A stretch of DNA of 63,272 bases, taken from the NCBI GenBank assembly GCA_947589515.1, contig CANQBE010000003.1:1-63272 (forward strand). Direction: 5' to 3'. The stretch is from an uncultured Bacilli bacterium. Its GTDB lineage: Bacteria > Bacillota_I > Bacilli_A > RF39 > UBA660. Below are positions 6,195-53,296 of this stretch, piece by piece. The position numbers and the translations under genes are program-made. Every line of letters begins with the position of its first letter. Positions within the stretch are counted from its first letter, which is position 1. The notes under the pieces are model-generated. The model saw only the letters and a list, made by a program, of their open reading frames with translations, did not search any database and was not told the DNA's origin.

Positions 6195-6220
6195 TGATAT
6201 TAATGTAAATTAATAAAACG

Positions 6221-6256
6221 ATAAAATAAGATGGGTTTCCTATCTTATTTTATTTT
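6221..6256 (+). terminator. sspA terminator
   Basis: ATAAAATAAGAT...ATCTTATTTTAT inverted repeat followed by T's. Confidence 0.7.
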
Positions 6257-6276: not shown

Positions 6277-6305
6277 TTGAAAAAAACTTGATTTTATGAT
6301 ATAAT
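6277..6305 (+). promoter_or_regulatory. sigmaA-type promoter of the HA-repeat gene array
   Basis: TTGAAA-17 nt-TATAAT with extended -10 TG. Confidence 0.7.
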
Positions 6306-6336: not shown

Positions 6337-7596
6337 GTGATGAATATTAATCAAAAATGGATGGAAAAATATGAATTATTGAAGGAATATAAAGAAGAAT
6401 ATGGTCATATTGATGTTCCAGCCTCATATGAAAAAAATGGAATTAAACTAGGTAGTTGGCTATTAATGCAAAGACAAGCTTATAAGGGAAATAGAAACTA
6501 CAAAATATCTGAAAGCAAAGTCCAATTATTAGAAGAATTAGGAATTAATTGGCAAATACGTAATAAAACCTGGGAAGATTATTATGAACTTTTAAAGGAA
6601 TATAAAAAAGAACATGGTAATATTGATGTCCCAATTTCTTATGAAAAAGATGAAATGAAATTAGGAATTTGGTTATATAATCAAAGACAAATCTATAAAG
6701 GAAAGAAAAGTGGAAGTTTAACAGAAAAACAAAAAGAACTACTAGAAGAGTTAGGAATCAATTGGAAAATAAGAGAAATCAGCATGATTTGGGAAGATTA
6801 TTATGAACTACTAAAAGAATACAAAAAAGAACATGGAAATATTGATGTCCCATATCATTATCAAAAGAATCAAATTAAATTAGGTGCTTGGTTACATAAT
6901 CAAAGACTAGCATATGAACAGTTAGGAACTTGTAAATTAACAGAAAAAAGAATACAATTATTAGAAGAATTGGGAATCAACTGGCACATTTTTGATCAAA
7001 AGTGGAATCAATATTATGAATTATTAAAAGAATATAAGAAAAAATATGGTAATATTAATGTTCCATATTCTTATGAAAAAGATGGAAAAAAATTAGGAAT
7101 CTGGTTATCTAATCAAAAACAAATTTATAATGGAAAAACAAAAGGCAATTTAAATGAAACTAGAATCCAATTATTAGAAGAATTAGGAATGAGTTGGGAC
7201 AAAACACATAGAATATGGCATGACTATTATGAACAATTAAAAGAATATAAAGAAGAACATGGAAATATCGACGTACCAACTTATTATCAAGTAAATCAAA
7301 TAAAATTGGGTGTTTGGTTACATCATCAGAGACAGGCATATAAAGGACAAAAACCATATGTAATCACAAAAAATCAAATAAGATTACTAAATGAATTGAA
7401 TATAGATTGGAGTATTCAAGATACCAAATTTTTACAGAAAACCATAAATGAACAAACACAAGAAAAATACCAACAAATTTTATTAGAACGCGTAAACCAT
7501 ATTATAGATGATTTAGTATATGAAGGTATCAACGATATTGATGCTACCAATCAAAAAGAAATAGAAAGAACCTTGATTAAAAGAATCTGGAGATAG
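6337..7596 (+). CDS. Stand-alone HA (helicase-associated) repeat protein 1: 5 repeats + C-terminal cap
   Basis: Five ~71-aa units W..YYELLKEYK.EHG.IDVP..Y.....LG.WL..QR..Y......T..Q..LLEELG..W, matching the PF03457 pattern; no helicase motifs. Confidence 0.85.
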   Translation: MMNINQKWMEKYELLKEYKEEYGHIDVPASYEKNGIKLGSWLLMQRQAYKGNRNYKISESKVQLLEELGINWQIRNKTWEDYYELLKEYKKEHGNIDVPISYEKDEMKLGIWLYNQRQIYKGKKSGSLTEKQKELLEELGINWKIREISMIWEDYYELLKEYKKEHGNIDVPYHYQKNQIKLGAWLHNQRLAYEQLGTCKLTEKRIQLLEELGINWHIFDQKWNQYYELLKEYKKKYGNINVPYSYEKDGKKLGIWLSNQKQIYNGKTKGNLNETRIQLLEELGMSWDKTHRIWHDYYEQLKEYKEEHGNIDVPTYYQVNQIKLGVWLHHQRQAYKGQKPYVITKNQIRLLNELNIDWSIQDTKFLQKTINEQTQEKYQQILLERVNHIIDDLVYEGINDIDATNQKEIERTLIKRIWR

Positions 7597-7608
7597 AGGT
7601 AATATAGA

Positions 7609-8859
7609 ATGAGTCATAATCAAAAATGGATGGAAAAATATAAATTATTAAAAGAATATCAAAAAGAGTATGGCAATATTGATGTCCCACAATCTTATGA
7701 AAAAGATGGTATGAAGTTAGGACAATGGTTAGCAACGCAAAGAAAAGCATATAAAGGAAAAGGGACTAATAGAATCACTCAAGATCAAATTAAGTTATTA
7801 GAAGAATTAGGAATCCATTGGCAAGTACATAATAAAACATGGGAAGATTATTATGAACTACTAAAAGAATATAAAGAAGAGCATGGAAATATTGATGTTC
7901 CACAAGCTTATGAAAAAAATGGTATCAAGTTAGGAATTTGGTTACATAATCAAAAACAGGCATATAACGGAAATGGACGTAGTAGCATCACTCAAGATCA
8001 AATTAAGTTATTAGAAGAATTAGGAATCCATTGGCAAGTACATAATAAAACATGGGAAGATTATTATGAACTACTAAAAGAATATAAAGAAGAACATGGA
8101 AATATTGATGTTCCAAACTTTTATGAAAAAAATGGTATGAAGTTAGGAAAATGGTTATCTACACAAAGACAAGCATATAAAGGAAATAGACGTAGTAGAA
8201 TCACACAAAATCAAATTAAGTTATTAGAAGAATTAGGAATAAGATGGAATCCTTATGATCAAAAATGGAATGACTACTATGAATTATTAAAAGAATACCA
8301 AGAAGAACATGGAAATATTGATGTTCCAAACTTTTATGAAAAAAATGGTATGAAGTTAGGAAAATGGTTATCTACACAAAGACAAGCATATAAAGGAAAT
8401 AGACGTAGTAGAATCACACAAAATCAAATTAAGTTATTAGAAGAATTAGGAATAAGATGGAATCCTTATGATCAAAAATGGAATGACTACTATGAATTAT
8501 TAAAAGAATACCAAGAAGAACATGGAAATATCGACGTACCAACTTATTATCAAGTAAATCAAATAAATCTAGGTGTTTGGCTACATCATCAGAGACAGGC
8601 ATACAAAGGACAAAAATCATGTGTCATCACAAAAAATCAAATAAGATTACTAAATGAATTAAATATAGATTGGAATCTTCGTGATACGAAATTTTTACAG
8701 AAAACCATAAATGAACAAACACAAGAAAAATACCAACAAGTTTTATTAGAACGTGTAAATCATATTATAGAAGATTTAGTATATGAAGGTATCAACGATA
8801 TTGATGCTACCAATCAAAAAGAAATTGAAAAAGTAATGATAAAGAGAATCTGGAGATAA
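7609..8859 (+). CDS. HA repeat protein 2: 5 repeats + cap
   Basis: Same repeat pattern; repeats 3 and 4 are an exact 213-bp duplication. Confidence 0.85.
   Translation: MSHNQKWMEKYKLLKEYQKEYGNIDVPQSYEKDGMKLGQWLATQRKAYKGKGTNRITQDQIKLLEELGIHWQVHNKTWEDYYELLKEYKEEHGNIDVPQAYEKNGIKLGIWLHNQKQAYNGNGRSSITQDQIKLLEELGIHWQVHNKTWEDYYELLKEYKEEHGNIDVPNFYEKNGMKLGKWLSTQRQAYKGNRRSRITQNQIKLLEELGIRWNPYDQKWNDYYELLKEYQEEHGNIDVPNFYEKNGMKLGKWLSTQRQAYKGNRRSRITQNQIKLLEELGIRWNPYDQKWNDYYELLKEYQEEHGNIDVPTYYQVNQINLGVWLHHQRQAYKGQKSCVITKNQIRLLNELNIDWNLRDTKFLQKTINEQTQEKYQQVLLERVNHIIEDLVYEGINDIDATNQKEIEKVMIKRIWR
8088..8531 (+). repeat. Perfect 213-bp tandem duplication (one HA module)
   Basis: AGAAGAACATGGAAATAT starts at 8088, 8301 and 8514; 8088-8300 equals 8301-8513 by inspection. 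Confidence 0.9.
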
Positions 8860-8890
8860 CAGTAATAATATATAAGGAGGGTCATCACTT

Positions 8891-9502
8891 ATGATTTATA
8901 ATCAGAAATGGATGAGAAAATATGAATTATTAAAAGCATATCAAAAAGAGTATGGCAATATTGATGTACCAACTGATTATGAAAAAGATGGCATCAAATT
9001 AGGAATCTGGTTAGCTAGTCAAAAGCAAGCTTACCGAGGACATGGAAGTAGTGTACTAACAGAAGAAAGAATCAAACTATTAGAAGACTTAGGAATGAAT
9101 TGGGAAAAAAGAGAGAAAAAATGGAATCAATATTATGAATTACTAACAGAATATAAGAAAGAACATGGCAATATTGATGTTCCATACTTTTATGAAAAAA
9201 ATGGAGTTAAATTAGGAATCTGGTTAACAAATCAAAAACAAGCCTATAAAGGACAAGTACCTTGGAAAATAACAGAGAATCAAATCAAATTATTAAATGA
9301 TTTGGAAATAGATTGGAGTCAAAATGATACCAAGTTTTTAAATAGAAAAATAAAAAGCACAACTACAACTACCTATCAACAAATTTTATTAGAACGCATC
9401 AATCATATCATGGATGATTTAGTATATGAAAAGATTAATGATATTGATGCTACCAATCAAAAAGAAATAGAAAAAATTTTGATTAAAAGAATTTGGAGAT
9501 AA
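8891..9502 (+). CDS. HA repeat protein 3: 2 repeats + cap
   Basis: Two HA units, then the DTKFL...LERINHI.DDLVYE...KRIWR cap. Confidence 0.85.
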   Translation: MIYNQKWMRKYELLKAYQKEYGNIDVPTDYEKDGIKLGIWLASQKQAYRGHGSSVLTEERIKLLEDLGMNWEKREKKWNQYYELLTEYKKEHGNIDVPYFYEKNGVKLGIWLTNQKQAYKGQVPWKITENQIKLLNDLEIDWSQNDTKFLNRKIKSTTTTTYQQILLERINHIMDDLVYEKINDIDATNQKEIEKILIKRIWR

Positions 9503-9531
9503 CAGTAATAAGATAGAAGGAGGTTATACTT

Positions 9532-10995
9532 ATGAACAATAATCAGAAATGGATGAAAAAATATGAATTATTAAAAGAATATCAAAAAGAACATGGAAAC
9601 ATTGATGTCCCAACTAATTATGAAAAAGATGGTATTAAGTTAGGACAATGGTTAGCAACGCAAAGACAAGCCCATAAAGGACAAGGAAAGTGTACCATTA
9701 CTCCAGATCAAACGAAGTTACTAGAAGAACTAGGAATCAATTGGCAAGTATATAATAACAGATGGAATTACTATTATGAACAATTAAAAGAATATAAAAA
9801 ACAGCATGGTAATATTGATGTTCCGAAATCCTATGAACAAAATGGAATGGAATTAGGAAAATGGTTAATGAGACAACGAAGAGCTTATCATGGACATAAA
9901 AGATATAAAATAACAGAAAACCAAATTCAATTATTAGAAGAATTAGGAATGAATTGGCAGGTACATGATAAAAAATGGAATGACTATTATGAACTATTAA
10001 AAGAATATAAAGAAGAGTATGGAAATATTGATGTCCCACAAGCTTATGAAAAAGATGGTATGAAGTTAGGAACTTGGCTATCTACCCAAAGACAGACTTA
10101 CCAAGGTAAAACGCAGTGTAAAATGACAGATACTCACATTCAATTATTAGAAGAATTAGGAATGAATTGGCAACTATATGATAAAAGATGGAATGAATAT
10201 TATGAGTTATTAAAAGCATATAAAGAAGAATATGGTAATATTAATATACCTGTTCTTTATGAAACAAAAGGAAAAAAATTAGGATCTTGGTTACATAATC
10301 AAAGAAAATCTTATTATGGAAAAGGAACTTATAGAATTACCCAAGAAAGAATTAAATTGTTAGAAGAATTAGACACCAATTGGAACATGTATGAAAAAAC
10401 TTGGAATGAATGTTATGAATTATTAAAAGAATATCAAGAAGAACATGGTAATATTGATATGCCAACTGATTATGTGAAAGATGGAGTAAAATTAGGAAGT
10501 TGGCTAGCAAGACAAAGATATGTTTACAAAGGTAACGCAAAAGAAAAATTAACGGAAAATCAAGTAAAACTATTAGAACAATTAGGAATGAACTGGAATC
10601 TTCATGATAAAAAATGGAATGAATATTATGAATTATTAAAAGAATATCAAGAAGAACATGGCAATATTGATGTCCCACAATTTTATGAAAAAGATGGTAA
10701 AAAATTATATAATTGGCTACATCATCAAAGACAAGCATATAAAGGACAAGGAAATTGTAGAATCACTCAAAATCAAATCAAATTATTAAATGAGTTAGAG
10801 ATAGATTGGAGTAGTTCTGATACGAGAGTTTTAAATCAAGACATAGTAGAAGAAAACAAAGAAAAATACTATCAAATTTTAGTAAATCGTATCAACCATA
10901 TTATGGATGACTTGATAATGGAAGACATTGATGAAATAAATGAAGGAAATCAAAAAGAAATCGAAAAAGTAATGATTAAAAGAATTTGGAAATAG
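9532..10995 (+). CDS. HA repeat protein 4: 6 repeats + cap
   Basis: Six HA units; the most divergent cap (ends KRIWK). Confidence 0.85.
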   Translation: MNNNQKWMKKYELLKEYQKEHGNIDVPTNYEKDGIKLGQWLATQRQAHKGQGKCTITPDQTKLLEELGINWQVYNNRWNYYYEQLKEYKKQHGNIDVPKSYEQNGMELGKWLMRQRRAYHGHKRYKITENQIQLLEELGMNWQVHDKKWNDYYELLKEYKEEYGNIDVPQAYEKDGMKLGTWLSTQRQTYQGKTQCKMTDTHIQLLEELGMNWQLYDKRWNEYYELLKAYKEEYGNINIPVLYETKGKKLGSWLHNQRKSYYGKGTYRITQERIKLLEELDTNWNMYEKTWNECYELLKEYQEEHGNIDMPTDYVKDGVKLGSWLARQRYVYKGNAKEKLTENQVKLLEQLGMNWNLHDKKWNEYYELLKEYQEEHGNIDVPQFYEKDGKKLYNWLHHQRQAYKGQGNCRITQNQIKLLNELEIDWSSSDTRVLNQDIVEENKEKYYQILVNRINHIMDDLIMEDIDEINEGNQKEIEKVMIKRIWK

Positions 10996-10999
10996 AGGT

Positions 11000-11833
11000 A
11001 TGATAAAAATGAATCATGATCAAAAATGGATGGAGAAATATGAATTATTAAAAGCATACCAAGAAGAGCATGGAAATATTGATGTACCAACTAATTATGA
11101 AAAAGATGGTATTAAGTTAGGACAATGGTTAGTGTATCAACGCGTAGCCTATAATGGAAAAGGAACCTATAAAATAACAGAAGACAGAATTAAATTATTA
11201 GAAAAATTAGGAATGAAATGGAATCTTCATGATAAAAAATGGAATGACTATTATCAATTACTAACAGAATATCAAAAAGAACATGGAAATATCGATGTAC
11301 CAATGTCTTATGAAAAAAATGGAATGAAATTAGGAAAATGGTTAGTTACTCAACGCACTGCTTATAAAGGAATTGGAACTTATAAAAGAACAGGAAAAAG
11401 AATTCAATTATTAGAAAAATTAGGAATGAACTGGCAAATCTATGATAAACAATGGAATGACTATTATGAACGATTAAAAGAATATCAAGAAGAACATGGC
11501 AATATTGATGTTCCAAGATCATATGAAAAGGATGGCATAAATCTAGGAATATGGTTATCTCATCAAAGACAGGCATATAAAGGACAAAAACCATGTGTAA
11601 TCACAAAAAATCAAATAAGATTACTAAATGAATTGAATATAGATTGGAGTATTCAAGATACAAAATTTTTACAGAAAACCATAAATGAACAAACTAAAGA
11701 AAAATACCAACAAGTTTTATTAGAACGTGTAAACCATATCATAGATGACTTGGTATATGAAAGTATTAACGACATAGATACTACAAATCAAAAAGAAATA
11801 GAAAAAATAATGATTAAAAGAATCTGGAGATAG
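11000..11833 (+). CDS. HA repeat protein 5: 3 repeats + cap
   Basis: Three HA units; the true start may be ATG 11009, which has better RBS spacing. Confidence 0.85.
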   Translation: MIKMNHDQKWMEKYELLKAYQEEHGNIDVPTNYEKDGIKLGQWLVYQRVAYNGKGTYKITEDRIKLLEKLGMKWNLHDKKWNDYYQLLTEYQKEHGNIDVPMSYEKNGMKLGKWLVTQRTAYKGIGTYKRTGKRIQLLEKLGMNWQIYDKQWNDYYERLKEYQEEHGNIDVPRSYEKDGINLGIWLSHQRQAYKGQKPCVITKNQIRLLNELNIDWSIQDTKFLQKTINEQTKEKYQQVLLERVNHIIDDLVYESINDIDTTNQKEIEKIMIKRIWR

Positions 11834-11845
11834 AGGTAATATAGA

Positions 11846-13759
11846 ATGAGTCATAATCAAAAATGGATGGAGAAATATGAATTATTAAAAGAATATCAAA
11901 AAGAGTATGGAAATATTGATGTCCCACAATCTTATGAAAAAGATGGTATTAAGTTAGGTCAATGGTTAGCAATGCAAAGACAAGCCTATAAAGGACAAGG
12001 AAAGTGTACTATCACTCAAAATCAAATTCAGTTACTAGAAGAATTAGGGATAAATTGGAATCTTCAGGATAAAAGATGGAATGAATATTATCAATTACTA
12101 ACAGAATATCAAAAAGAACATGGTAATATTGATGTCCCACAATCTTATGAACAAAATGGTATCAAGTTAGGAATTTGGTTACATAATCAAAAACAGGCAT
12201 ATAAAGGAACAGGAAAAGGTAGCATCACACAAGATCAAATTAAGTTATTAGAAGAATTAGGAATGCATTGGAATCTTCATGATAGCAGATGGAATGACTA
12301 TTATAAACAATTACAAGAATATAAAAAAGAATATGGAAATATTGATGTCCCACAATCTTATGAACAAAATGGTATTAAGTTAGGTCAATGGTTATCTACC
12401 CAAAGACAAGCATATAAAGGAAAAGGAAATAGTAGAATCACACAAGATCAAATTAAATTATTAGAAGAATTAGGAATGAATTGGCAGGTAAATGATAAAC
12501 AATGGAATGACTATTATGAATTATTAAAAGAATATAAGAAAGAATATGGTAATATTAATGTTCCATATTCTTATGAAAAAGATGGAAAAAAATTAGGAAT
12601 CTGGTTATCTAGTCAAAAACAAATTTATAATGGAAAAACAAAAGGCAATTTAAATGAAACTAGAATCCAATTATTAGAAGAATTAGGAATGAGTTGGGAC
12701 AAAACACATAGAATATGGAATGACTATTATGAAGAATTAAAAGAATATAAAAAACAGCATGGTAATATTGATGTACCAATTTCTTATGAAAAAGATGAAA
12801 TAAAATTAGGAATTTGGTTATATAATCAAAGACAAGCTTATAAAGGAAATAGACGTAGTAGAATCACTCAAAATCAAATTAAATTATTAGAAGAATTAGG
12901 GATAAATTGGCAGGTAAATGATAAACAATGGAATGACTATTATGAACTATTAAAAGAATATAAAGAAGAGCATGGTAATATTGATGTCCCACAATCTTAT
13001 GAACAAAATGGTATTAAGTTAGGTCAATGGTTATCTACCCAAAGGCGGGCATATAAAGGAAAAGGGACTAATAAAATCACACAAGATCAAATTAAGTTAC
13101 TAGAAGAATTAGGAATGCATTGGAATCTTCGTGATAGCAGATGGAATGACTATTATGAACTATTAAAAGAATATCAAAAAGAATATGGAAATATTGATGT
13201 TGCAGTTACTTATGAAAAAAATGGTATGAAGTTAGGAAAATGGTTATCTACACAAAGACAAGCATATAAAGGAAAAGGAACTAGTAGAATCACACGAGAT
13301 CAAATTAAGTTATTAGAAAAATTAGGAATGAGTTGGGGCAAAACACATAGAATGAGTTGGGACAAAACACATAGAATATGGAATGACTATTATAAAATAT
13401 TAAAAGAATACCAAGAAGAACATGGAAATATCGACGTACCAACATATTATCAAGTAAATCAAATAAAATTAGGTGTCTGGTTACATCATCAAAGACAGGC
13501 ATATAAAGGACAAAAACCATGTGTAATCACAAAAAATCAAATAAGATTACTAAATGAATTGAATATAGATTGGAATCTTCGTGATACGAAATTTTTACAG
13601 AAAACCATAAATGACCAAACACAAGAAAAATACCAACAAGTTTTATTAGAACGTGTAAATCATATCATAGAAGATTTAGTATATGAAGGTATCAATGATA
13701 TTAATGCAACAAATCAAAAAGAAATTGAAAAAATAATGATTAAAAGAATCTGGAGATAA
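11846..13759 (+). CDS. HA repeat protein 6: 8 repeats + cap
   Basis: Eight HA units; contains a 24-bp micro-duplication at 13326-13373. Confidence 0.85.
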   Translation: MSHNQKWMEKYELLKEYQKEYGNIDVPQSYEKDGIKLGQWLAMQRQAYKGQGKCTITQNQIQLLEELGINWNLQDKRWNEYYQLLTEYQKEHGNIDVPQSYEQNGIKLGIWLHNQKQAYKGTGKGSITQDQIKLLEELGMHWNLHDSRWNDYYKQLQEYKKEYGNIDVPQSYEQNGIKLGQWLSTQRQAYKGKGNSRITQDQIKLLEELGMNWQVNDKQWNDYYELLKEYKKEYGNINVPYSYEKDGKKLGIWLSSQKQIYNGKTKGNLNETRIQLLEELGMSWDKTHRIWNDYYEELKEYKKQHGNIDVPISYEKDEIKLGIWLYNQRQAYKGNRRSRITQNQIKLLEELGINWQVNDKQWNDYYELLKEYKEEHGNIDVPQSYEQNGIKLGQWLSTQRRAYKGKGTNKITQDQIKLLEELGMHWNLRDSRWNDYYELLKEYQKEYGNIDVAVTYEKNGMKLGKWLSTQRQAYKGKGTSRITRDQIKLLEKLGMSWGKTHRMSWDKTHRIWNDYYKILKEYQEEHGNIDVPTYYQVNQIKLGVWLHHQRQAYKGQKPCVITKNQIRLLNELNIDWNLRDTKFLQKTINDQTQEKYQQVLLERVNHIIEDLVYEGINDINATNQKEIEKIMIKRIWR

Positions 13760-13800
13760 AATAATGGAAATCACTATTTATAAGTAGTCCGTTATTTTAT
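13756..13800 (+). terminator. Possible terminator closing the HA array
   Basis: ATAAAATAATGGA...TCCGTTATTTTAT inverted repeat followed by a T-rich run. Confidence 0.5.
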
Positions 13801-13856
13801 ATCTTTTTTTTCTTTTTAATTTCGTGTATAATTAGTGATATAGAAAGAGGGATTTT

Positions 13857-51100: not shown

Positions 51101-53296
51101 ATGGTAACAAGTTTAGAATTAAAAGAAGTATTACAACATTATCTAAGTTTAGAACAAGTTAATTCCTTCCTAAATAAAAAAATCAATACTTTATGTAAAC
51201 GGGGAAATATTAATAATATTGATAAAATATTAAAAGTACTTCAAAAATACCAATTATTAAATTTGGTATTACTATGTCCAACTATATTAGTCCAAGGAAA
51301 CAGCCAGGAAATCAAAAATATTTTAAATTTATTAGAAAGTAAGGGTTTATTAGGATTAATAAACACTTGCCCAACTATATTAGCCCAAGGAAAAAGTCAA
51401 GAGATAGAAAAAATTTTAAAATTATTAGAAAGTAAGGGTTTATTAGGATTAATAAACACTTGTTCATCTATATTAGTTTTTGGAAACAGTCAAGAAATCA
51501 AAAATATTTTATGCTTGCTAGAAAGTAAAAATTTATTAGGATTAGTAAACACCTGTCCATATATATTAGCCCAAGGAAAAATTCAAGAGATAGAAAAAAT
51601 TTTAAAATTATTAGAAAGTAAGAATTTATTAGAACTAATCAATACTTGTCCATCTATATTAGCCAAAGGAAAAAGCAAGGAAATCAAAAATATTTTAAAC
51701 CTATTAGAAAGTAAAGGTTTATTAGGATTGGTAAACACCTGTCCAACTATATTAGCCCAAGGAAAAATTCAAGAGATAGAAAAAAATTTAAAATTATTAG
51801 AAAGTAAAAATTTATTAGGATTAGTAAATACTTGCCCAAGCATATTAGCTCAAGGAAAAAGTCAAGAAATCAAAAATATTTTAAGTTTATTAGAAAGTAA
51901 GAACTTATTAGGATTACTGAAAACTTGTCCAACTATATTAGTAAAGGGAAACAGCCAAGAAATCAAAAATATTTTAAACCTATTAGAAAGTAAAGGTTTA
52001 TTAGGATTGGTAAACACCTGTTCATCTATATTAGCCCAAGGAAAAATTCAAGAGATAGAAAAAATTTTAAAATTATTGGAAAGTAAGAATTTATTAGAAC
52101 TAATCAATACTTGTTCAACTATATTAGCTCAAGGAAACAGTCAAGAAATCAAAAATATTTTATGCTTGTTAGAAAGTAAGAACTTATTAGGATTACTGAA
52201 AACTTGTCCAACTATATTAGCAAAGGGAAACAGTCAAGAAATCAAAAATATTTTAAATTTATTAAATGATAAGAGTTTATTAGGATTAATTAATATTTGT
52301 CCATCTATATTAGCCCAAGGAAGAAGTCAAGAAATCGAAAAAATTTTAAATTTATTAGAAGGTAAGAACTTATTAGGATTAGTAAATATATATCCAACAA
52401 TATTAGCCCAAGGAAACAGCCAAGAAATCAAAAATATTTTAAGTTTATTAGAAAAATATAATATTGATTTAGAATTACTTTCACCATTTCCCTATTTGTT
52501 ACTTTCCTATTCTAAAGTAAGATCTATTTTAGAACATGATCGTAATCATTTAACAGAAGAAGAATTTTGGATGAATGTTAGAATCTATTTAAAAATAACC
52601 GATCATTATAATAAAATCTATAATCAGGAACAAATCATAGAATTATCTCAAATTTTAAAAATAGATACCAATCAATTATTAGAAAATATTATGGGAAAAA
52701 GTATTAATTTAAAAGAAGTACTTAAACAAAAGGGTTCTATTTGGATAGGGGATTATATTTCTTGTACGAAAGAACAGCTACAAGAAAATCAAATATTAAT
52801 TATAAAGATTACGGAAATGGTTACTAAAAGTTTTATCAAAAAACATAAAGATTTCAATATAGATTATTCTGATTTATATGATTATGTATTAGATATATTA
52901 ATCAATCGATGTGGTAATCTATTGATTAATACGACTTCAGAAGAAAATTTGAGAAAAGCGTTATATATATATCTAATGAAATACTGCTATCACATGATTT
53001 CAAATAGAAAGTATGTAGATTATGAAAAAATAAGTAACATTCAAAAATATAGTAGTCAAGATTTTTATCAAAGTAATTTTGTACAAAATTATTCCTTTTT
53101 AACAGAAGAGGAACAGTATTTTTTAGAGAAAATGTCTCAATATATAGAATTGGGTGGAGACTACATGAGATTATTAAAAGAAGAATGGAATTTAACAGAA
53201 GAAGAAATTCAAGAAAAAATGAAAACGATTAAAGAAAAAATATCTAGTAGCAATTATCTATCGGATATTGGTAAGAGCAAGTACTTAAAAAAGTAA
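51101..53296 (+). CDS. Protein with 13 tandem 31-aa helical repeats (mTERF/TALE-like) and a sigma-70-like C-terminus
   Basis: Repeat consensus LLGLVNTCPTILAQGNSQEIKNILNLLESKN (aa 52-454); aa ~557-637 and ~667-714 resemble sigma regions 2 and 4. Confidence 0.6.
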   Translation: MVTSLELKEVLQHYLSLEQVNSFLNKKINTLCKRGNINNIDKILKVLQKYQLLNLVLLCPTILVQGNSQEIKNILNLLESKGLLGLINTCPTILAQGKSQEIEKILKLLESKGLLGLINTCSSILVFGNSQEIKNILCLLESKNLLGLVNTCPYILAQGKIQEIEKILKLLESKNLLELINTCPSILAKGKSKEIKNILNLLESKGLLGLVNTCPTILAQGKIQEIEKNLKLLESKNLLGLVNTCPSILAQGKSQEIKNILSLLESKNLLGLLKTCPTILVKGNSQEIKNILNLLESKGLLGLVNTCSSILAQGKIQEIEKILKLLESKNLLELINTCSTILAQGNSQEIKNILCLLESKNLLGLLKTCPTILAKGNSQEIKNILNLLNDKSLLGLINICPSILAQGRSQEIEKILNLLEGKNLLGLVNIYPTILAQGNSQEIKNILSLLEKYNIDLELLSPFPYLLLSYSKVRSILEHDRNHLTEEEFWMNVRIYLKITDHYNKIYNQEQIIELSQILKIDTNQLLENIMGKSINLKEVLKQKGSIWIGDYISCTKEQLQENQILIIKITEMVTKSFIKKHKDFNIDYSDLYDYVLDILINRCGNLLINTTSEENLRKALYIYLMKYCYHMISNRKYVDYEKISNIQKYSSQDFYQSNFVQNYSFLTEEEQYFLEKMSQYIELGGDYMRLLKEEWNLTEEEIQEKMKTIKEKISSSNYLSDIGKSKYLKK
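51254..52462 (+). repeat. 13 x 93-bp coding tandem repeat
   Basis: 31-codon periodicity visible in both protein and DNA. Confidence 0.95.

Follow-up and report, generated by a model that had tools for sequence, protein, structure and literature searches.

A genus-restricted family of helicase-free HA-domain array proteins at one variable chromosomal site

We identified an operon of six co-oriented plus-strand genes (6340–13759) in a 63,272-nucleotide window, the whole stretch of DNA analysed here, from an uncultured Bacilli bacterium of the gut. The encoded proteins are built from 5, 5, 2, 6, 3 and 8 HA modules (PF03457; n = 29), and the operon is a variant, not described before, of the known HA domain family. 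Bacterial and giant-virus helicases often carry HA domains; to our knowledge, almost nothing is known of what these domains do. The HA-plus-cap family found here is an accessory innovation that is limited to one genus and that grows and shrinks at one fixed chromosomal site. We give about an even chance to the reading that its members are fast-evolving accessory arrays that bind nucleic acid multivalently and that may have arisen from HA tails of the SF2 helicases found in congeners.

All 29 modules score 63–80 bits against PF03457 (gathering score used as the cut-off, 28.4 bits) and the whole proteins score 128–493 bits (E = 1.7e-37 to 2.4e-151). No other Pfam family exceeds its cut-off in the six proteins. 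The module profile also matches the solved HA domain 2KTA over positions 1–70 (E = 2.2e-4), which together with the Pfam scores bears out the original prediction that these are HA domains. Modules are 71 amino acids long, are joined by linkers of about six residues, contain no stop codons and share 52–65% amino-acid identity (median DNA identity, 72%). Three tryptophans (W1, W34 and W65) are invariant in every module, as are 15 residues overall. AF2 models of the gene 3 product (two modules plus cap; pLDDT 91.8, pTM 0.67) and the gene 5 product (three modules plus cap; pLDDT 83.9, pTM 0.48) have three helices per module. Searched against viral models, Foldseek retrieves other HA-array proteins (E = 4e-6); against the PDB, both models return nothing below E = 1, neither a solenoid nor a solved DNA-binding fold, and thus no fold analogue for the multi-module unit or the cap. 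Walker A and DExD/H motifs were said to be absent, and a motif scan of the six proteins indeed found neither, nor any hydrophobic, signal or transmembrane segment. An NCBIfam search gave no informative match.

The operon was described as six tandem co-oriented genes behind one extended −10 σA promoter, set between sspA and ackA, and the open reading frames, the gaps between them (12, 31, 29, 4 and 12 nt, from gene 1 to gene 6) and the promoter agree with that description (Table 1). The 5-5-2-6-3-8 arrangement stands as well, given that the PF03457 stretches reproduce it and the DNA contains 29 copies on a 213-nt period. Two start codons likely need small corrections, to ATG 6340 in gene 1 and ATG 11009 in gene 5; the gene caller's own gene 5 product (P0002), at 274 amino acids, agrees with the latter. 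The flanking genes encode an α/β-type small acid-soluble protein (SASP) upstream and acetate kinase (ackA) downstream, and iscS, thiI, the SASP gene, ackA, nrnA and engB are the neighbours in all array-bearing genomes. The hairpin of the SASP terminator is kept in eight genomes, and the TGnTATAAT box is retained in all eight aligned genomes, with the remaining spacer diverged. The operon is driven by its own predicted promoter. Rfam families are absent from the operon region, and no integrase or transposase is present with the operon.

Table 1. Features of the HA operon and its left boundary (positions in the window)
Feature	Positions	Strand	Open reading frame	Description
Intrinsic terminator of the upstream SASP gene	6220–6254	+		16-pair hairpin, then T run; left operon boundary
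σA-type promoter, extended −10	6277–6305	+		TTGAAA-17-TGaTATAAT; 11/12 consensus matches plus TG
HA gene 1	6340–7596	+	6337–7596	5 modules + cap; 418 aa from ATG 6340; ORF opens at GTG 6337
Cap, gene 1	7429–7593	+		55 aa; profile match, E = 3.5e-28
HA gene 2	7609–8859	+	7609–8859	5 modules + cap; 416 aa
Exact direct repeat in gene 2	8087–8531	+		232 nt; copies begin at 8087 and 8300
Cap, gene 2	8692–8856	+		55 aa; cap profile match
HA gene 3	8891–9502	+	8891–9502	2 modules + cap; 203 aa
Cap, gene 3	9335–9499	+		55 aa; cap profile match
HA gene 4	9532–10995	+	9532–10995	6 modules + cap; 487 aa; only acidic paralogue, pI 6.6
Cap, gene 4	10828–10992	+		55 aa; cap profile match
HA gene 5	11009–11833	+	11000–11833	3 modules + cap; 274 aa from ATG 11009; ORF opens at 11000
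Cap, gene 5	11666–11830	+		55 aa; cap profile match
HA gene 6	11846–13759	+	11846–13759	8 modules + cap; 637 aa
Cap, gene 6	13592–13756	+		55 aa; cap profile match

All six proteins finish with a distinct last module followed by the cap, and the first module is also dedicated. We ruled out the cap as a degenerate HA module (hhalign probability against the module, 0.6%), and its profile has no match among PDB sequences. The cap is present in 63 clusters of 1.84e9 cluster representatives and occurs in no genus but this one; apart from HA, 45 of the 47 cap-bearing proteins carry no domain. The C-terminal tails of HA-helicases in congeners weakly resemble it (hhalign E = 1e-3, probability 20%), and the HA-plus-cap family was possibly derived from the HA tails of these ResIII/DEAD helicases. 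Five of the six proteins are mildly basic (pI 8.4–9.0) with a modest net charge, and their composition includes about 4% tryptophan and 7–8% tyrosine. Modules 3 and 4 of gene 2 are a recent tandem duplicate, module 7 of gene 6 contains an 8-amino-acid duplication and a protein identical to that of gene 3 is encoded on contigs of three further samples. Gene 2 holds the one assembly-sensitive stretch, a 232-nt exact tandem repeat that could affect its module count; all remaining exact repeats are at most 107 nt, and at their median DNA identity the modules assemble unambiguously.

Related loci were searched with the last module plus cap as the query. Copy number at the sspA–ackA locus proved to vary across related genomes, as had been anticipated, with 0, 6, 9, 11, 22, 29, 51 or at least 64 modules. 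Mis-assembly of repeats may have exaggerated or masked part of these differences between metagenome-assembled genomes (MAGs). Amplification at one chromosomal site has reached 12 or more HA genes in tandem, and the same architecture occurs in at least eight other genomes. Two of the loci (L081 and L082) are 99.2% identical over 10.4 kb and then differ by approximately 6 kb of extra HA genes. The HA proteins are 56–69% identical to those of the nearest congeners, versus 97–99% for ackA. HA domains were found in 13 of 29 congeners and are absent from 16, one congener (G027) has an empty site and the cap is missing from 150 of 150 other genera of the bacterial family; we accordingly rejected the HA proteins as core nucleoid-associated proteins.

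The 29 modules in the operon are the only ones in this genome, and the helicase domain of congeners has no tblastn match in it at E = 1e-5 (the assembly is 87% complete). This genome thus has no HA-helicase, and the proteins themselves are helicase-less, as first described; congeners do encode ResIII/DEAD–HA fusions with 2–8 HA modules. One congener (G021) has both HA arrays and an HA-helicase, and for most congeners with arrays all of the HA matches listed fall within this site. One HA-helicase of a related MAG adjoins a BrxC/D-type ATPase and an Lhr-type helicase. Among 50,697 INPHARED phage genome records, tblastn gave one weak match only, and PHROGs gave only sub-threshold fragments for the HA proteins. 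Links to two other repeat proteins were rejected for want of sequence similarity to the HA genes: a 1,337-amino-acid protein that follows the HA genes in one congener (G004) and has no homologue in this genome, and a 31-amino-acid-repeat protein encoded in the window (51101–53296). Neither of the two has a sigma-domain match in Pfam.

Purifying selection on the core residues of the module is strong (dN/dS = 0.27 once the variable sites are set aside, from a SLAC-like count of synonymous and non-synonymous changes in 63 modules). The high-entropy positions are 22, 23, 33, 36, 37, 45–49, 52–53, 64 and 66–71; variation extends to the H2–H3 loop, helix 3 and the linker. The variable positions (22, 23, 33, 36, 37, loop and linker) use almost any residue and evolve at about the neutral rate; their pooled dN/dS is 1.2–1.3, at a nominal p of 0.04–0.08 for sites picked after the fact. 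We dropped diversifying selection at the hypervariable sites, as positive selection was not robust in this count.

Under the reading that we favour, each protein is a cytoplasmic, non-catalytic string of two to eight three-helix HA domains that ends in the last module and a helical cap. Each module would be a weak and largely sequence-unspecific binder of nucleic acid, with DNA the likeliest ligand, and would make contact through the polar and basic residues that are conserved around helix 2 (LGxWLxxQ[RK]xAY[KN]G). Tandem modules would then provide avidity, with a footprint that lengthens with module count. The last module and cap may supply a function that is common to the paralogues, for example by capping the structure, self-associating or docking onto a partner that they share. 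Turnover could proceed by module and gene duplication, unequal crossing-over and gene conversion, with exposed positions drifting. The likeliest cellular role would be to coat or bridge DNA, or to interfere with foreign DNA. Binding of nucleic acid is putative, by analogy with one NMR study of a distant HA domain (Mills et al. 2013, cited in PMC12191111), the title of which indicates DNA binding; the modest net charge, the acidic product of gene 4 and the lack of a Foldseek match between the two-module-plus-cap unit and any solved DNA-binding fold argue against it.

In our view the proteins are unlikely to be an anti-phage or anti-mobile-element family, whether one that has no effector and works by occluding or sequestering incoming DNA, or one that serves a distantly encoded effector as its sensor or specificity subunit. 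The distribution is patchy and genus-restricted, copy number changes quickly from species to species and, as L081 and L082 suggest, from strain to strain, and the HA proteins diverge faster than the flanking genes, all of which would suit such a role. HA domains also occur on restriction-like helicases and PLD nucleases (PMC12191111), and the BrxC/D-type neighbour of one HA-helicase fits the same picture. However, the proteins have no match in PADLOC-DB 2.0 at E = 0.001 (NsnC, at E = 0.0086, is noise), and the locus lies among housekeeping genes (thiI, SASP, ackA, nrnA and engB) rather than in a defence island, with housekeeping neighbours in each lineage examined. None of three lineages has a conserved effector or partner, mobility genes (integrase or transposase) are absent and positive selection was not demonstrated.

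We consider it rather improbable that HA bundles instead bind proteins, as scaffolds or structural repeats akin to spectrin- or ankyrin-type modules. All-helical repeats that are rich in tryptophan and tyrosine and modest in net charge would be in keeping with this, and a variable exposed surface is typical of binding scaffolds; the failure to match any solved DNA-binding fold points the same way. Against these observations, HA domains sit on DNA motors (ResIII/DEAD helicases) in congeners and in viruses, the one studied HA domain is reported as DNA-binding, to judge from the title cited in PMC12191111, and no partner gene is conserved nearby.

A modular family of DNA or RNA readers without an effector, in which the helix-2 face would set local preference and a fast-changing repertoire of one to more than 12 readers of differing length would recognise and occlude invading DNA or retarget transcription, is very unlikely. 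If true, it would amount to a new scaffold for recognition, in principle on a par with TALE or PPR proteins. Fainter still is the case for programmable sequence readers of the TALE, PPR or PUF kind, in which the variable helix-2 face of every module (positions 33, 36 and 37, with 22 and 23) would recognise a single base or a few, and the six paralogues would have six different DNA or RNA targets. The most variable positions do cluster at 22/23 and 33/36/37 on the helix-2 face, the latter spaced i, i+3 and i+4 opposite the conserved W34–L35–Q38–Y42 stripe, and dedicated first and last modules and a cap are also found in TALE arrays. Yet the modules are far from near-identical, and their variation reaches well beyond helix 2. 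There is no small residue alphabet: combinations at 33, 36 and 37 are nearly all unique across 247 modules (3.1–3.6 bits per site). The helix-2 face alone has a dN/dS of 0.86, and near-neutral sites with almost unrestricted residues do not support a TALE-like code. On these grounds an analogy with PPR, TALE or zinc-finger arrays that read a code is not supported.

We see only a slim chance that the proteins are adaptors or regulators of an HA-type SF2 helicase, competing with or loading a helicase that bears the same modules. Helicases of the genus bear this type of module, their tails may be related and G021 has both kinds of protein, but this genome has no HA domain outside the operon and, in its 87% complete assembly, no tblastn match to the helicase domain of congeners at E = 1e-5, and HA matches are listed at this locus alone in most array-bearing congeners. 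An assembly artefact or a decaying selfish repeat without function merits almost no weight: the source is a 57-contig MAG with one 232-nt exact repeat, and a low-coverage contig from another sample (L084) has a different, possibly chimeric, junction, but contigs from other samples reproduce the gene 2–3–4 junctions at 98.6–100% identity, at least eight other genomes have the same architecture, every frame is open and purifying selection acts on the core.

With HA alone, in strings of two to eight modules within one operon, the locus offers a natural dilution series for single-module binding and the additivity of arrays. The outlay of a small genome (approximately 1.1 Mb) on HA genes, at 0.67% of its DNA, and the presence of at least 64 modules in a related strain point to some strongly selected use that is particular to the lineage. 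Should the arrays bind DNA and their preference be tunable, engineering would also gain a new compact helical scaffold.

Several known systems resemble these arrays in part. TALE, BurrH and MOrTL proteins, PPR and PUF also consist of tandem helical modules of differing number, with special terminal repeats and variation on an exposed helix face. In contrast to these, HA has a fold that is not related to theirs, its modules differ from one another much more strongly, and neither a two-residue code nor a small alphabet is apparent. Nor is there evidence for a solenoid or for a one-module-one-base register; the resemblance suggests, at low odds, only a possible way of working. Myb/SANT and homeodomain-type repeats likewise use small three-helix units in tandem for DNA contact, an analogy only, as they have no sequence or Foldseek match to the HA proteins. 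HA repeats without a helicase are also present in a Lachnospiraceae MAG protein (P0057) and a gut siphovirus protein (A0A8S5NYW4). Such database proteins lack the cap and are not known as multi-gene arrays, and literature searches found no functional study of HA-only proteins. The closest likeness is to the HA arrays of SF2 ResIII/DEAD helicases (2KTA is from a Bacteroides 'putative helicase'), which share the domain family, the three-helix fold and the tandem arrangement. Unlike those helicases, the operon proteins carry no helicase, nuclease or other domain, and have their own first and last modules, a cap found only in this genus and many genes in tandem.

Six open reading frames on the + strand fill positions 6337-13759, and the HA module (PF03457) is the only family above the Pfam cut-off in their products, which contain 5, 5, 2, 6, 3 and 8 stretches, 29 in total. 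The six-gene, 29-module HA operon (5-5-2-6-3-8) of the original prediction is thus borne out by both the reading frames and the PF03457 count, the check that had been proposed for it. At the DNA level, the 29 copies keep a strict 213-nt period. A six-frame scan of the whole source assembly (G000; 1.108 Mb, 57 contigs, 87% complete) recovered precisely 29 HA matches, all in the operon and none outside it. As had also been predicted, a motif scan of the six proteins found neither Walker A nor DExD/H motifs; hydrophobic segments are likewise absent, and these absences suggest that the proteins are cytoplasmic and non-enzymatic.

The operon is preceded by iscS, thiI and an α/β-type SASP gene, and is followed by ackA, an nrnA-like gene of the DHH family and engB. 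The predicted extended −10 σA promoter was recovered (see the table), and its TGnTATAAT box is conserved in all eight of the aligned genomes. Genes 1 and 5 likely start at ATG 6340 and ATG 11009, respectively. Because the stretch after the last HA gene (13760-13856) contains a T-rich run only, without a hairpin terminator, read-through into ackA is possible; ackA also has a TGtATAAT box of its own.

Transcription signals of the HA operon, and HA content of the sspA-ackA site in the source genome and its relatives (feature or genome; interval; content)
Terminator of the SASP gene	6220-6254	16-pair hairpin
σA-like promoter	6277-6305	TTGAAA, 17 nt, TG-extended TATAAT; best such site of the region
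G000 (source genome)	SASP gene to ackA	6 genes, 29 modules
G005 (congener)	SASP gene to ackA	1 gene, 6 modules
G004 (congener)	SASP gene to ackA	2 genes, 11 modules and an unrelated 1337-aa repeat protein
G021 (congener)	SASP gene to ackA	3 genes, 9 modules
G023 (congener)	SASP gene to ackA	3 genes, 22 modules
L081 (Hadza contig)	SASP gene to ackA	12 genes, 51 modules
L082 (Hadza contig)	SASP gene to ackA	at least 13 genes, at least 64 modules
G027 (congener; locus L045)	SASP gene to ackA	empty; SASP gene and ackA adjacent, 138 nt apart

All six proteins follow one plan: an N-terminus of 5-6 residues (M-x-x-NQK), a first-type module (WMEKYELLK...), 0-6 internal modules, a last-type module (...LLNELNIDW..DTK) and a 55-aa C-terminal cap (FLQKTINEQ..YQQ.LLER.NHI.DDL....NQKEIEK..IKRIWR). 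Together 126 aa long, the last module and cap form the part best conserved among paralogues, with 85% mean column identity versus 71% for the modules when first, internal and last types are taken as one set. Within the 71-aa module, 15 positions never vary, W1, W34 and W65 among them, and entropy peaks at positions 22, 23, 33, 36, 37, 45-49 and 66-68.

In AlphaFold2 models of the 3-module (pLDDT 83.9, pTM 0.48) and 2-module (pLDDT 91.8, pTM 0.67) proteins, each module is predicted to form three helices, the first starting 4 residues ahead of W1 and ending at position 15, the second spanning 31-42 and the third 52-60; the cap adds three more. From the helical geometry of predicted helix 2, positions 33, 36, 37 and 40 would be solvent-exposed, since they lie opposite the conserved L31-W34-L35-Q38-Y42 stripe. 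The module profile aligns with the solved HA domain 2KTA along its entire length (E 2.2e-4). Foldseek recovered other HA arrays among viral models, and no PDB relative of either model with E<1. The cap has no PDB relative, and its candidacy as a degenerate HA module was rejected (hhalign probability 0.6%).

Synonymous and non-synonymous changes were counted by parsimony across 63 modules from five genomes. The global dN/dS is 0.46, falling to 0.27 without the variable sites; it is 0.86 for the helix-2 face alone and 1.2-1.3 (nominal p 0.04-0.08) at the variable sites, which were picked for their variability. These values point to strong constraint on the core and an approximately neutral rate at exposed sites, and diversifying selection at the latter is not demonstrated by this count.

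The sspA-ackA locus is a fixed hot spot for HA arrays. A survey of this site, as originally proposed, gave module numbers that vary from 0 (G027) to at least 64 (L082), in MAG-to-MAG comparisons that repeat assembly can skew. For example, the two Hadza contigs are 99.2% identical across 10.4 kb, beyond which one has ~6 kb of HA genes that the other lacks; either the strains differ by an indel, or a repeat has collapsed in one of the assemblies. The related loci stem from MAGs named ‘uncultured Bacilli bacterium’ (rabbit and Hadza human gut) and ‘uncultured Tenericutes bacterium’. In more distant congeners (L046-L066), an ackA paralogue occupies the position; this second paralogue (50-55% identity) lies directly upstream of ackA and is absent from the subclade containing G000. 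No partner gene is common to the HA arrays, and two other lineages have different array neighbours.

At this locus in the sister species G004, the 1337-aa protein (L022:6278-10291) lies 3′ of both HA genes and has ~12 copies of an ~80-aa repeat unrelated to HA (QSIYDYFTEEEKAYV..WW..N..NYD.IVKLYG.TYDC...). It lacks any credible Pfam domain, and G000 encodes no homologue. The window holds a further repeat-array protein in addition to those of the HA operon (51101-53296; 731 aa), in which 13 near-identical 31-aa repeats accompany a non-repeat C-terminal part. Its last 231 residues have no Pfam match, and no similarity was seen between this 731-aa protein and the final 363 residues of the one in G004.

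The HA proteins of the nearest congeners are only 56-69% identical to those of G000, without one-to-one orthology, whereas ackA is 97-99% identical. In the module tree, modules cluster by species clade, with first-type and last-type modules apart, a topology consistent with internal modules that expanded within each lineage or evolved in concert. The median DNA identity between module pairs is 72%, and recent duplicates are few (module 4 of genes 1 and 6, 98%; modules 3 and 4 of gene 2, 96%); in genes 1, 2 and 6, last modules and caps also reflect recent events (91-95%). The longest exact repeat, within gene 2, is 232 nt, and all others are at most 107 nt. Contigs from other samples match 7913-10775 at 98.6% and 8646-9578 at 100%. 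In one ENA contig from another sample (L084; 2.6x coverage), corresponding to 11829-12898 and about 8460-9800 of the window, the first modules of gene 6 run into a chimeric last module (g1m5/g2m5), followed by cap 2 and then directly by gene 3. Either this contig represents a recombinant strain in which much of the array is missing, or its low-coverage assembly is chimeric.

Within the genus, 13 of 29 genomes have HA modules, as do 2 of the 8 other genera sampled from the family; none was found in the genomes sampled outside the family (one represents another family of the order, the rest other families of the class). The cap is absent from other genera of the family (0/150). Among 1.84 billion cluster representatives only 63 carry it, almost all of them at the very C-terminal end. 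Lengths of full-length cap-bearing proteins are stepped at ~61+71n (132, 203, 272, 349, 416, 486, 553 and 647 aa), and shorter matches look like fragments. HA is the sole domain in 45 of 47 cap-bearing proteins. In a different gut lineage (L077-L079:6491-9422), two HA-only genes in tandem, each encoding 473 aa with 80-aa modules and a tail unlike the cap (...NRVRSYLNTLDE...KRLKIKK), are flanked by a gene for a hybrid histidine kinase and by the rpsL operon; three samples have this identical arrangement.

ResIII/DEAD helicases of congeners carry 2-8 HA modules at their C-terminal end, and their tails are weakly similar to the cap (hhalign E 1e-3, probability 20%); the helicase domain has no match in the 87%-complete G000 assembly. 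In a related ‘uncultured Bacillales’ MAG (L033:2759-10396), a 1170-aa ResIII-HA helicase with 8 HA modules adjoins a BrxC/BrxD-family ATPase and an Lhr-like DEAD helicase, a group that may be a defence cassette. Other HA-helicases of relatives sit among cell-wall genes. The HA proteins themselves have no PADLOC match, only noise in PHROGs and one weak match among 50,697 phage records.

One published NMR study of the HA domain reportedly indicates DNA binding by its title, and this title, together with domain membership, suggests that the HA proteins bind DNA. The original prediction likened them to arrays of the Myb, zinc-finger or PPR type; the analogy with code readers failed two of its defining tests. 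Judged from sequence, the best-supported reading is that they form a family of accessory, multivalent nucleic-acid-binding arrays, the turnover of which is compatible with a possible role in genetic conflict and which may have been released from helicase tails.
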